Below the pieces are notes generated by a model, which made no database searches, had not been told where the DNA came from, and was given only the letters and a program-made list of their open reading frames with translations. From assembly GCA_019057795.1 (NCBI GenBank), contig JAHLWS010000021.1, positions 40,260 to 104,259 on the forward strand: a DNA stretch of 64,000 bases, read 5' to 3'. The stretch is from Promethearchaeota archaeon. Lineage in GTDB: Archaea > Asgardarchaeota > Lokiarchaeia > Sigyniarchaeales > SOKP01. This document shows positions 28,076-32,254 of the stretch, piece after piece; positions within the stretch are counted from its first letter, which is position 1, and every line of letters starts with the position of its first letter. Made by a program: the position numbers and the translations under genes.

Positions 28076-28909
28076 TTAATCAACCCAAAAATCTTTTGCC
28101 AATCGTCTTCTTGTTTGCCACAGACCACCCTTTTCAGTGAATCCAAGTACACCTTTACCTTGATCAGCGTCTTTTATTTTCCACATCCCGCTAAAAGCCC
28201 CAGTTAAAGCGCCGGATAAAACTTCAAAGCCTTGGGCGGTATATAAGTCACACTCTACTCCGCGATTAATAATAAATTTTAGTTGACGCATACCTTGCTG
28301 GTTTTTGGATTTAAGCACATCCAACAACAGTTCTACTTCGGTATCAAGTTGGTCGTTGGGCACAACCCGGTTCCATAGGTTCCATTCTACTGCTTTTTCT
28401 CCAGAGTGGAGCGCGCCGATAAGATTAATCTCTTTAGCTCTCCGTCGACCTATAAGTCGAGATAATCGCGTAGTACCGCCCCATCCGGGAGTTATTCCGA
28501 CGTCTACTTCGGGCATGCCCCACTTCGAGCGCTCAGTGGCAATTACAAAATCACACACCATCGTAATTTCCAAACCGCCACCTACTGCATAACCGTCTAC
28601 TGCTGCAATTGTGATTTTATCGAGTTCCTCGATTTGATTCGCCATATTTTGATAGTATCGACATCTTCGAGTTATATCGTTAGCGTTTCCCCATTTAATC
28701 ATTTCTTTAATATCATCGCCCACGCAGAAGTTATCCCCCGCGCCCTTGATAACTAAGAATTTGAGTTTTGTAGACTGCCTTACGATTTCTATAGCGGCAA
28801 CTATCTCTTCAGAAAGTTTCATGCTTAACGCGTTCATGACATCAGGTCGATTGAGCGTTATCCAAGCCACTTGGTCCGTCTCTTTATATATTAAATTTTC
28901 GAATTTCAT
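28076..28909 (-). CDS. Enoyl-CoA hydratase/isomerase family protein
   Basis: ITLNRPDVMNAL, FCVGDDI, AAVDGYAVGGGLE, GMPEV..GITPGWGGT. Confidence 0.9.
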   Translation of the reverse strand: MKFENLIYKETDQVAWITLNRPDVMNALSMKLSEEIVAAIEIVRQSTKLKFLVIKGAGDNFCVGDDIKEMIKWGNANDITRRCRYYQNMANQIEELDKITIAAVDGYAVGGGLEITMVCDFVIATERSKWGMPEVDVGITPGWGGTTRLSRLIGRRRAKEINLIGALHSGEKAVEWNLWNRVVPNDQLDTEVELLLDVLKSKNQQGMRQLKFIINRGVECDLYTAQGFEVLSGALTGAFSGMWKIKDADQGKGVLGFTEKGGLWQTRRRLAKDFWVD

Positions 28910-29084
28910 AATTTATTTTTGATTAAGTTTTATATAAATGTATAGAACATTTTTATCATTAATTATTTTTTAAAGGTTATTGGAAGAGTTGTACGCCATA
29001 CGGCTAGTTATTTTGTGGTTAGGTCATTTATGATTATTTAGTTATATTAAATTTATATTTTTTTCAATTTGAGATTAAATATGA

Positions 29085-29099
29085 GATAAAATTTATAAA
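29085..29099 (+). promoter_or_regulatory. Putative BRE/TATA promoter for the leuS leader transcript
   Basis: tttataaa at 29092-29099 preceded by purine-rich gataaaa. It ends 26 nt before ATG 29126, consistent with a near-leaderless start. The AT-rich background lowers confidence. Confidence 0.45.
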
Positions 29100-29125
29100 A
29101 TACAATTACTATATTTTCTATAATA

Positions 29126-29212
29126 ATGATCTCTAATAATATTGCTTCAAGAAAATCAATACGAGCTTTTGTACTTCTAGGATATTTGCTTTTAGCATTA
29201 TTATTATTGTGA
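29126..29212 (+). CDS. Putative Leu-rich leader peptide of leuS (28 aa)
   Basis: MISNNIASRKSIRAFVLLGYLLLALLLL*: 9 Leu in the last 12 codons and none in the first 16; lies directly upstream of leucyl-tRNA synthetase. Confidence 0.7.
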   Translation: MISNNIASRKSIRAFVLLGYLLLALLLL

Positions 29213-29268
29213 GTGAAACAAATCCACTCGATCTTTTTCTTTTTAAATTTCCACGGATTTGTTCTCTC
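29210..29268 (+). promoter_or_regulatory. Candidate attenuator: mutually exclusive hairpins and a U-tract
   Basis: gagtg (29211-15) pairs with cactc (29225-29) and is followed by tctttttcttttt. Alternatively aacaaatcc (29217-25) pairs with ggatttgtt (29255-63). Confidence 0.5.
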
Positions 29269-29365
29269 TGTGTATACAATTTAATTGAAGGAGGTCATAG
29301 GTGGGTTGGTTGCTCTATGGAGATAAAAAGTTAACTTGAAAATAAAAAAAATAGTGGTAAAATTC

Positions 29366-32254
29366 ATGTATAAACCCCAAGAAATCGAAAAGAAATGGCA
29401 GGAAAAATGGGAACAAGCTAAAATTTTCGAAGCAAACCCAAATCCGGAGAAAAAGAAGCTTTTTATAACGTCTCCTTACCCATATGCTTCTGGACCTTCA
29501 CATATAGGCCATGGAAGGAGTTTTGTAAATGGAGATATATTTGCCAGGTATTATCGAGCTAAAGGCTATAATGTACTATATCCTATGGCTTTTCACATTA
29601 CAGGTACTCCTGTTTTAGCAATCTCTTCTTCTATTGAAAGAAAGGATAAAGAGACTATAGAAAGAATGAAGGACTATGTATCTTTACACACTAAAAGTCA
29701 AGAAAAGGTAGAGAAGATTGTAGAAAGTTTTGTAGATCCTTGGAATATTGTTAACTATTTTTCTAAAACAATAAAAACCGATTTTAAATCGATAGGAATG
29801 AGTTTAGATTGGAGAAGGGAATTTACTACGGGTGACAAGTTATATAACAAGCTGATTGAGTGGCAATATTACAAATTATCTGAGTTAGGGTACTTGGAAA
29901 AAGGCGAATATCCCATTCTTTATTGTATGCGATGCGAAAATGCTGTAGGAGAGGACGATATAGCAAGTGGAGACGAACTTGATTTGAACATAAACGAATA
30001 CATTTGTATAAAATTTCCGTTTGAAGACGCTTATTTAGTACCTTCTACCTTAAGACCAGAAACGATATATGGTGCGACTAATCTATGGATAAACCCAAAT
30101 GGGGCGTATGTTTACGCTAAAGTCAACGGAGAGAAGTGGATTATTTCTGAAGATGCAACCAATCTTTTAAAAAATCAAAATAAAAACGTTACCATACTTG
30201 AAAAAATTAGGGGAATGGAACTTATTGGTAAAAAGGTTAAGGATGTAGATGGAATCAGAGAGCTTTTAATATTACCAGGATATTTCGTAGATACTTCAGT
30301 AGCTACGGGCGTGGTCTACTCTGTGCCAGCTCATGCTCCCTATGACTACATCGCTTTAATTGATTTACAGAATAATCGTGAAATAATTAAAAAATTTAAA
30401 TTAAACAAAGAAGAAATTAGTCAAATTAAGCCAATTCAAATTATAGATTTAGAAGGCTTCGATGAGATTCCAGCAAAAATTTACTGTGAAAAATTTGGAG
30501 TTCAATCTCAAGAAGATGTAGAGAAATTAGATAACGCAACTTCCGAAAATTATAAAACTGAATATTATAACGGCACTTTAAATGAGAAATGTGGAAAATA
30601 CGAAGGAAAACAGGTAAAAGAAGCAGTAGAGAATGTTATTGTGGATTTAATTGAGAGAAATAAGGCAGACAAATTCTACCTTCCAATTACTAATAATCTT
30701 AAATGCAAGTGTGGAGAGCAGGTGATCGTCTCAATTATGAAAGATCAATGGTTTCTAAATTTCAATGCGGGAAATTGGAAGCAGAAAGCATTTGAGTGCC
30801 TAAATAAAATGGAAATTGCCCCTAAAAAATATAGAATGAATTTTGAACATATATTTAATTGGTTGGAAAAGAGACCTTGTGCTAGAAAAAGAGGTTTAGG
30901 CACGAAACTTCCATTTGATAAAGATTGGATTATTGAATCTTTAAGCGACTCTACAATATACATGAGCTTCTATACTATATTACATTTAATAAAAAAGAAT
31001 AACATCAAACCAGAACAGCTTACACCAGAATTTTTTGACTATGTTTACTTAGATAAAGGTGATATCGAAGACTTGTCAAAAAAGACTAGCGTTGATTCGA
31101 AAGTATTGAAGCAAATGCAAGACGAATTTTCCTATTGGTATCCCGTTGATCATCGACACACAGCTATAATGCACATATCTAATCATTTGAGTTTCTATAT
31201 TTTCCATCATGTGGCTATATTTCCAGAAAAACAGTGGCCAAGAATTATTTCCCTTATTGAACCCGTAATTATAGAAGGTCAGAAAATGGGTAAGTCAAAA
31301 GGAAACGTTATTTCATTGGCAGATATTCAAATGAATTACTCCGCGGATTTATTTAGGTTTTATATATCCCATAGCGCAGATTTTGGAATAATCGTAGATT
31401 GGAGGGAAAAACAGATACATACCGTAAAAAATCATATTAATCGATTTTACTCCTTTATCACAAAAAATATCAACAGAATAAGTGATTTTGACGGTAAAAT
31501 TGAAGATTTAAGCACAAAATATTCAAAAATTATCTTATCAAAGTGTATAAGAAAAATAATCGAAGCAGAAAGTGGATTGAAGGAACTCAATTTAAGGAAA
31601 TACCTTCAATTATCATTTTACGAGGTTTTTAACTTATTACAAGAACTTAATAAGTACTCTAAAGATGAAAACGATCAAACGGAAGTATATAAGATTGTAT
31701 TTCCTGAATGGATCCAAATTCTTTCTTTAGCCATGCCTCACTTATGTGAAGAACTATGGGAATTAATGGGAAATACAGAGTTTTTATCAAAGACAGTTTG
31801 GGGTGATTTTAGCAGAAAGCATATAAATAACGAGCTCGAAAAAGAGTTTGAATATATTTCTAGCATTGTGGACGATATTTTAAACATAAAAAAAATAGTG
31901 AAATCTGGCGATTCAAGTAATATTTATTTATACACGGCTCCTAAATGGAAATATGAGGTTTATGATGTAATTATTTTAAAGAAGGGAAATTTCAATGACA
32001 TTATTGATGAGTGTAAGCTCGATAGTGGCTTAATGAAAAACAAAAATTTGATTTCATTTGTTAAAAACCAAATAAAAGATAGAATCTGGGAAAAAGAATT
32101 AATAAGATTAGATGAGAAGGAGTTAATAAAAGAATATAAAGGCTACATTGAAAAAAGGATAAACAATGTAATAATTATTAATTCAGAGTACGATCCGAAA
32201 AACCGCTTAATAAAAACTATTCCATATAGGCCAGCAATTTATGTAGAAATCTAA
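29366..32254 (+). CDS. leuS: Leucine--tRNA ligase (archaeal/eukaryotic type)
   Basis: PYPYASGPSHIGH (HIGH motif), STLRPET editing domain, GVVYSVPAHAPYD, IESLSDSTIY, KMGKS. ATG 29366 (MYKPQEIEKKWQ). Confidence 0.96.
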   Translation: MYKPQEIEKKWQEKWEQAKIFEANPNPEKKKLFITSPYPYASGPSHIGHGRSFVNGDIFARYYRAKGYNVLYPMAFHITGTPVLAISSSIERKDKETIERMKDYVSLHTKSQEKVEKIVESFVDPWNIVNYFSKTIKTDFKSIGMSLDWRREFTTGDKLYNKLIEWQYYKLSELGYLEKGEYPILYCMRCENAVGEDDIASGDELDLNINEYICIKFPFEDAYLVPSTLRPETIYGATNLWINPNGAYVYAKVNGEKWIISEDATNLLKNQNKNVTILEKIRGMELIGKKVKDVDGIRELLILPGYFVDTSVATGVVYSVPAHAPYDYIALIDLQNNREIIKKFKLNKEEISQIKPIQIIDLEGFDEIPAKIYCEKFGVQSQEDVEKLDNATSENYKTEYYNGTLNEKCGKYEGKQVKEAVENVIVDLIERNKADKFYLPITNNLKCKCGEQVIVSIMKDQWFLNFNAGNWKQKAFECLNKMEIAPKKYRMNFEHIFNWLEKRPCARKRGLGTKLPFDKDWIIESLSDSTIYMSFYTILHLIKKNNIKPEQLTPEFFDYVYLDKGDIEDLSKKTSVDSKVLKQMQDEFSYWYPVDHRHTAIMHISNHLSFYIFHHVAIFPEKQWPRIISLIEPVIIEGQKMGKSKGNVISLADIQMNYSADLFRFYISHSADFGIIVDWREKQIHTVKNHINRFYSFITKNINRISDFDGKIEDLSTKYSKIILSKCIRKIIEAESGLKELNLRKYLQLSFYEVFNLLQELNKYSKDENDQTEVYKIVFPEWIQILSLAMPHLCEELWELMGNTEFLSKTVWGDFSRKHINNELEKEFEYISSIVDDILNIKKIVKSGDSSNIYLYTAPKWKYEVYDVIILKKGNFNDIIDECKLDSGLMKNKNLISFVKNQIKDRIWEKELIRLDEKELIKEYKGYIEKRINNVIIINSEYDPKNRLIKTIPYRPAIYVEI

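Follow-up and report, generated by a model that had tools for sequence, protein, structure and literature searches.

The leuS leader and its promoter

The stretch analysed here, a 64,000-nucleotide (nt) window of contig JAHLWS010000021.1 from a Promethearchaeota archaeon (hereafter the window), carries on its forward strand a gene for an archaeal-type leucyl-tRNA synthetase (LeuRS), leuS (29366..32254), whose 962-amino-acid product was recognised by domain search as a class I synthetase with tRNA-synt_1 and Anticodon_1 domains. The gene upstream, coding for an enoyl-CoA hydratase, is divergent, and the 456-nt spacer between the two is therefore a shared promoter region. Within this spacer lies the subject of this work, a compact leader element of approximately 180 nt (from the predicted transcription start at 29120 to 29296) that combines a Leu-rich mini-gene with an RNA structure enclosing a U-tract. 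A previous reading made from the letters of the DNA only (hereafter the sequence-only reading) had proposed a leader-peptide attenuator of leuS at this place.

The features of the leader that precede its RNA structure, all on the forward strand, are the following. A TATA-like box (tttataaa, 29092..29099) can be read in the sequence, directly preceded by an A-rich stretch resembling a transcription factor B recognition element (BRE). With a TATA spacing of ∼25 nt, transcription is predicted to start at A29120, right after T29119, leaving a 6-nt untranslated stretch (29120..29125) in front of the mini-gene, an upstream open reading frame (uORF) of 28 codons (29126..29212, stop codon 29210-29212). 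Nine of its final 12 codons (29174..29209) are Leu codons (4 TTA, 2 TTG, 2 CTT, and 1 CTA), and none occurs before; the ATG of leuS (29366) lies 153 nt 3' of the uORF stop codon. Box, frame, Leu run and spacing are all in the sequence as the sequence-only reading had listed them. Scans of the leader region gave chance-level Rfam matches only, far under the gathering scores (no T-box or known Rfam leader), and no tRNA; a sigma-70 and terminator pattern scan of the leader, ill-suited to archaea, gave no terminator.

The TATA/BRE block stands at a constant distance from the uORF ATG and is kept in all four classes of the element described below, in each of which the ATG sits inside a conserved motif ∼6 nt past the start implied by this block. 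The uORF is thus predicted to be near-leaderless and to lie at the 5' end of the transcript. The leader is covered by contigs with ∼97% identity to the window, taken from two metatranscriptome libraries that belong to a single study. One of them spans 29120-29229 and ends exactly at 29120, in agreement with the predicted start, a weak hint given that contigs cannot prove starts. Another runs unbroken from 29200, inside the uORF, over the U-tract and the helices flanking it to beyond 30600, well into leuS, showing that leader and leuS are contiguous in that RNA library. The RNA libraries were seen as contigs only, so the depths of the leader piece (19) and of the leuS piece (52) are not comparable; the stretch 28600-29119 is without cover by RNA-library contigs, which carries no inference, and two runs marked 'RNA?' are probably DNA. 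One RNA-library contig fuses the reverse complement of 29208-29229 to position 29120, a join with the look of an artefact of template switching or snap-back at the 5' end of an RNA. At least half of the sampled words of 28600-30600 were found in cold-seep and marine-sediment metagenomes of approximately eight further studies, and the uncultured organism or its close kin are therefore widespread in such sediments.

Conservation of the reading frame and of its leucine codons

The leader element is real and conserved, far beyond chance. A covariance model built on the stretch from the stop codon onward was searched in 135 genomes of one Asgard family and matched 111 of them, often with two or three matches per genome; the 160 loci fetched reduced to 128 distinct copies. 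A DNA search across the order gave strong matches in most genomes of one family. The sequence-only reading had staked its proposal on finding a conserved Leu-rich uORF before leuS in relatives, and within the family it is there: the uORF, its Leu-rich tail, the helix and the U-tract are kept before leuS in relatives whose LeuRS is 63-96% identical to that of the window. Even at 63-76% LeuRS identity, an open reading frame (ORF) of 27-30 codons whose tail is rich in Leu occupies this position at every locus, with the same helix and U-tract behind it (these loci are labelled Promethearchaeia, Promethearchaeota or 'Thorarchaeota', and one label looks wrong). No such ORF was found upstream of leuS in the sister family, including three single-contig genomes, and the query used found no archaeal-type LeuRS in three element-free genera of the same family. 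On this distribution, the leader element is a family-level invention tied to particular genes. In one single-contig genome (L095/L115, G059:C1, ∼1335400 onward), the leuS frame behind the leader closes after 288 codons, which could reflect a frameshift, an assembly error or a split gene.

The mini-gene itself is under selection as a reading frame. Of 129 distinct copies, 128 have a frame of 20-32 codons that opens with ATG and closes on the first base of P1, the main helix described below, or a few bases from it. Read over these stretches, the two alternative frames contain 498 and 253 stops, and only 8 copies have a second open frame. A chance AT-rich ORF, which the sequence-only reading had kept as an alternative, is thereby out. 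The leuS copies use nine different uORF lengths (24-32 codons), all in frame, and in nearly all of them the stop codon falls at the first base of P1, although its identity varies (TGA, TAA, and TAG). From these comparisons, we consider it likely that the leader is a translated cis-regulatory element.

The codon content of the tail differs between the leader classes. In their final 12 codons, the 58 distinct leaders found before leuS hold 403 Leu and 6 Ile (58% versus 1%), with a median of 7 Leu per leader (range 5-9); all six Leu codons are used and the residues between them vary widely. Sister copies of the leader stand before other genes. The 11 distinct leaders preceding a gene for an FrhB/TrmB fusion protein are built on the same scaffold as the leuS leaders, including an Ala-Val-Leu core, with 28 Leu and 53 Ile in the final 12 codons. 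Another 36 distinct leaders, found before ORFs of 58-65 amino acids with a YYKDW motif, show no bias towards a single amino acid; one of them belongs to the window genome, at another locus. A mixed remainder of 21 copies, which includes several mis-sorted leaders of the leuS and FrhB/TrmB types, contains leaders with Val-rich tails before ORFs of 45-65 amino acids.

A Leu-rich leader also precedes a bacterial-type LeuRS, 28% identical to the window LeuRS, in three genomes of one genus in which the archaeal-type LeuRS was not found. Leu codons thus go with LeuRS function for a second time, and their link to LeuRS genes is real. That the leader gauges Leu-tRNA specifically is more finely balanced, and we lean slightly towards it. 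The window genome also encodes a second, bacterial-type LeuRS of 931 amino acids (C73:17852-20647), 28% identical to the window LeuRS, which is without leader though its orthologue in another genus has a Leu-rich one.

Helices, U-tract and pseudoknot

Three helices are conserved in the leader. The main one, P1, begins at the base after the stop codon and pairs 29213..29225 with 29255..29266 through 12 pairs and one bulge, around a 9-bp core (29217-29225 with 29255-29263); 93-94% of cells in the family alignments are paired, with compensatory changes. Its 29-nt loop holds a nearly invariant pyrimidine/U-tract (29230..29244) with T-runs at 29234-29238 and 29240-29244. The first 10 bases of this tract are the 5' strand of P2 (29230-29239), which pairs with a purine run 55 nt downstream (29287..29296) and forms an H-type pseudoknot with P1; here 88-91% of cells are paired and 6 of the 10 pairs show changes on both sides. 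A purine-rich, Shine-Dalgarno-like motif 3' of P2 (29297..29305) is also kept in the family alignments. The third helix, P0, is a hairpin inside the mini-gene itself, in which uORF codons 4-7 (29134..29146) pair at 12 of 13 positions with the Ala-Leu-Leu-Leu codons of the tail (29194..29206). It is found in every class, its arms covary, and its register shifts between groups by exactly 3 nt, that is, one codon. The two arms of P0 correspond to the head Asn-x-Thr-Ala and the tail core Ala-Val-Leu of the leader peptide. The uORF region folds better than codon-permuted versions (mean z ∼ -3) and than synonymous recodings (z -1.9 to -2.9). Placed together on one alignment of 41 sequences, P0, P1, and P2 have 89.5% of cells paired and 14 double-change pairs, as compared with 40-55% paired in slid controls, and none of 500 shuffles was as good.

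The structure set of the sequence-only reading overlapped only in part with these helices. Its competing 9-bp helix proved to be conserved as the core of P1, with the U-tract in the loop as it had been drawn, but the U-tract comes before the 3' arm of P1, and P1 therefore cannot pre-empt a terminator in the manner of a classical antiterminator; P0 and the P2 pseudoknot had been missed. Its terminator candidate, a small 5-bp gagtg/cactc hairpin over the stop codon (29211..29229, 29211-29215 with 29225-29229) followed by the U-tract, is present in the window and in close kin, where one pair covaries from T:A to C:G, and the U-tract is indeed nearly invariant. The stem, however, has only 73% of cells paired across the family; more than half of the sequences cannot form its two central pairs, and most of the largest genus lacks an intact stem.

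Folded as a single sequence, the whole leader has no significant stability (z -1.7), and the case for the structure is for this reason a comparative one. Masked folds of the window sequence alone did not discriminate between models, since the folding program cannot draw a pseudoknot. The single-sequence fold is dominated by a long-range helix between the 5' arm of P1 and the purine motif (29300-29305), which we do not count among the conserved features, as it has 66% of cells paired across the family, no better than shuffles. An inner extension of P2, pairing an A/U stretch of the P1 loop with one before P2, was set aside; judged by eye, compensation was limited to a few sequences, and most of the largest genus had lost the pairing. 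Sequestration of the leuS start region or its ribosome-binding site by the leader was rejected as well: the duplex energy between leader and leuS start region is no better than that of shuffles (mean z +0.31, with 3% of copies below -2), and the start region itself, A-rich and unstructured, does not complement the leader.

Proposed mode of action and its alternatives

We propose that the leader acts in cis by reporting the speed of the ribosome through the Leu-codon run and setting leuS output accordingly, a reading we hold to be a serious possibility without going so far as to call it probable. Transcription would start ∼6 nt before the uORF ATG, so that the first ribosome would load on the nascent 5' end. 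Since P1 begins directly behind the stop codon, its 5' arm must be covered in full by a ribosome that terminates there, and a ribosome stalled at the first Leu codons, 30-36 nt upstream of the stop, would not hinder P1. Without P1 and P2, the U-tract remains single-stranded. With charged tRNA-Leu plentiful, the ribosome at the stop codon would block P1 and with it the P1/P2 pseudoknot, and the exposed U-tract would allow the transcript to be ended or cut there, by oligo-U termination or through the aCPSF1/FttA route, turning leuS off. When tRNA-Leu is scarce, the ribosome would stall at the first Leu codons, P1 would fold, P2 would bury the U-tract, and the transcript would continue into leuS. 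The sign of such a switch is the one expected for the control of a synthetase. Control of transcript ending or cutting at the U-tract is favoured by the geometry of the leader and by the fact that the leuS start is not complementary to it; translation of the uORF, transcript ending at the U-tract and the direction of the switch are what we infer. The attenuator suggested by the sequence-only reading thus keeps its Leu-rich uORF at the 5' end of the leuS transcript, followed by RNA structure and a U-tract, and loses its terminator and antiterminator as drawn. New additions made here are the hairpin P0 and what it implies for the peptide, the covariation of the pseudoknot, the poor conservation of the small stem, the contrast between Leu and Ile copies, the second LeuRS type and the rejection of a branched-chain link for the sister copies.

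Several points weigh against this proposal. Oligo-T termination by archaeal RNA polymerase acts while the T-tract is being transcribed and would therefore precede the existence of the P1 3' arm, so that the scheme needs a slow or factor-dependent ending step such as aCPSF1/FttA. The most used Leu codon is the common TTA and not a rare codon. The pattern of the leader peptide is in part an RNA constraint imposed by P0; since the P0 arms encode its head and the core of its tail, a polar head followed by a hydrophobic tail is not by itself readable as a Leu sensor. The leader family also stands before the FrhB/TrmB fusion and before ORFs of 45-65 amino acids that have no visible tie to Ile, Val, or Leu, and one leader class is not rich in any single amino acid. 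Finally, the sequence-only reading had suggested looking for cognate-rich uORFs before other synthetase genes, and in the window genome none was found before those for IleRS, ValRS, MetRS, a CysRS-like protein or the second LeuRS.

The timing problem disappears if ribosome and polymerase are coupled with the opposite sign. A prompt ribosome would then cover the stop-codon hairpin and push the polymerase over the T-tract 20-34 nt ahead, giving read-through, while a ribosome stalled on the Leu codons would leave the polymerase to terminate alone, and leuS would rise with the supply of Leu-tRNA as a feed-forward growth control. Everything needed has already been transcribed at the T-tract, the small hairpin adjoins the U-tract in the window, and the fixed short distance from stop codon to U-tract fits a ribosome touching the polymerase on the T-tract, as in bacterial coupled complexes. 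We nevertheless find this version unlikely: it would make less synthetase at low charged tRNA-Leu, the reverse of known synthetase controls (the pheST attenuator, T-boxes), it assigns no function to P1 and P2 despite their strong conservation, and its small hairpin is poorly conserved. Just as doubtful, in our view, is a uORF that is translated without gauging leucine, serving as a general sensor of translation capacity or stabilising the mRNA through remodelling of P0 and P1. On this view, it is the A-rich and U-rich arms of P0, together with lineage history, that would have given rise to the hydrophobic, U-rich codons. P0 does fix the head and the tail core of the peptide, the uORF region is more structured than its synonymous recodings, the same leader precedes unrelated genes with one class lacking any amino-acid bias, and with so few independent gene classes the pairing of Leu with leuS could be a one-in-three coincidence. 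Outside the P0 core, however, the leuS copies are nearly all Leu (6 Ile in ∼700 codons) in many synonymous codons while the FrhB/TrmB copies have Ile, the interspersed residues vary while the Leu count holds at 5-9, and the Leu-rich version also accompanies the second, 28%-identical LeuRS.

The RNA might instead matter for its own sake, as a structured non-coding leader (a pseudoknot riboswitch, or a binding site for a protein or a tRNA) in which the open frame is incidental or secondary. Three covarying helices that include an H-type pseudoknot with conserved loops would suit this, as would the several downstream gene classes, expected for a ligand-sensing RNA, and the share of the peptide pattern explained by P0. 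We regard it as improbable given a frame open in nearly all of these diverged copies with the other frames closed, length changes in whole codons, a P0 register that shifts by one codon between groups, an ATG within a conserved motif 6 nt from the predicted start, a stop codon fixed at the foot of P1 and the lack of an Rfam match. At the other extreme, the peptide product could be what counts, either as a hydrophobic micropeptide or as a nascent chain that arrests the ribosome at the stop codon in the manner of TnaC or the fungal arginine attenuator peptide. In its favour, codons change synonymously where Leu is retained, N-terminal residues are conserved, and with 24-32 residues the whole chain would still sit in the exit tunnel when termination occurs. 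Residues other than Leu, though, differ widely from lineage to lineage, P0 accounts for the conserved head, and a membrane span would need a hydrophobic stretch of ∼18-20 residues or more, whereas the tails run for 10-13 residues up to the stop codon and are frequently interrupted by Asp, Gln, or Lys. We therefore rejected the small membrane protein, which the sequence-only reading had named as a fallback, and consider a role for the peptide product in general very improbable.

Leader-peptide attenuation is a textbook bacterial mechanism dependent on coupled transcription and translation, exemplified by the transcription attenuators leuL-leuABCD and pheM-pheST of Escherichia coli, pheST coding for an aminoacyl-tRNA synthetase. 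The leader shares with these a short ORF rich in the cognate amino acid on the same transcript, followed by overlapping helices and a U-tract, and a synthetase gene as target (pheST there, leuS here). It differs from them by its archaeal host, by a near-leaderless ORF without Shine-Dalgarno motif that is itself a hairpin, by Leu codons that reach the stop codon, which in turn abuts the main helix, by the lack of a conserved GC-rich terminator stem, and by a conserved helix that encloses the U-tract instead of preceding it, with a pseudoknot pairing the U-tract. A conserved leader ORF contiguous with leuS in an RNA-library contig and an enrichment in cognate codons are thus at hand as in a classical attenuator, while an antiterminator helix able to form before the terminator is not, the P1 3' arm (29255-29266) lying past the U-tract (29234-29244); archaeal termination may need no stem. 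In the pyrBI attenuator of E. coli, the outcome is also set by how closely the leader ribosome trails the polymerase at a U-rich site, but pyrBI senses uridine triphosphate via polymerase pausing, not an amino acid, and has a canonical hairpin terminator. H-type pseudoknot riboswitches and recoding pseudoknots resemble the leader in having a two-stem pseudoknot directly 3' of a stop codon or regulatory site; here there is no evident ligand or recoding signal, the stop codon is variable, and Rfam holds no match.

Among predicted bacterial cases are attenuators of leuS and trpS in Streptomyces (PMC1262725). The leaderless polycysteine short ORFs of mycobacteria, the 'Cys ribulon' (Canestrari et al., bioRxiv 10.1101/834739), come close in another respect, as each is a leaderless sensory ORF with a codon run for one amino acid as first cistron, several loci share one design, and stalling (which we propose here) is read out via RNA structure. 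However, the host is bacterial there and archaeal here, and the stalled mycobacterial ribosome frees a downstream ribosome-binding site (10.1101/834739), whereas our leader is not complementary to the leuS start. The leader is therefore a variant, and not a member, of the bacterial attenuators or the mycobacterial sensory ORFs, having neither an antiterminator that forms before a terminator nor a sequestered ribosome-binding site.

A literature search found no report of leader-peptide attenuation in archaea. A conserved, codon-tuned Asgard example would show that ribosome position can steer the fate of an archaeal transcript. The leader would also offer a natural test bed for the interplay of archaeal termination (oligo-U, aCPSF1/FttA) with a trailing ribosome. 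As the element is compact and several natural 'codon flavours' exist on one scaffold, the question is directly testable with reporters and in vitro systems.

Taken over the whole family, the copies may represent near-leaderless sensory mini-genes coupled to a pseudoknot that buries the U-tract, each tuned by its codon run (apparently Leu before two kinds of LeuRS, and Ile or Val before other genes), with the pioneer ribosome deciding whether the transcript ends at the U-tract, an extension that we put forward tentatively. If true, ribosome-mediated attenuation would here have its first case among the Archaea, and this in the lineage closest to eukaryotes. A link of the Ile/Val-rich copies to branched-chain amino acids was considered and rejected, as they are followed by the monocistronic FrhB/TrmB fusion gene or by ORFs of 45-65 amino acids without Pfam match. 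Their neighbours are unrelated as well (an AAA ATPase, DsrE, PIN, an MFS transporter, and an aminotransferase on the other strand).

An Ile/Val-rich leader at L097:1434-3120, and at approximately 12 other loci (e.g., L163, L173, L238), precedes the monocistronic fusion gene, whose product of ∼480 amino acids carries a 4Fe-4S motif and FrhB/FdhB N- and C-terminal domains fused to a TrmB-type helix-turn-helix; it is possibly a redox-sensing regulator under uORF control. The window genome holds a second copy of the leader on the minus strand of another contig (C10:14860-15139, locus L112), with TATA box, 26-codon ORF, P0, a 13-bp P1, U-tract, and P2. Its peptide shows no single-amino-acid bias, its stop codon lies inside the 3' arm of P0, and it precedes a 58-amino-acid ORF with a strong Shine-Dalgarno motif and without Pfam match. 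The leuS start regions (29336-29365 in the window, and those of relatives) have at best a weak Shine-Dalgarno motif; a perfect one is found in the small ORFs behind sister leaders. tRNA-like sequences were seen directly 5' of two synthetase genes, on the same strand, namely those for ValRS (C53, ∼60-140 nt before the ATG) and for a 480-amino-acid synthetase (C62).

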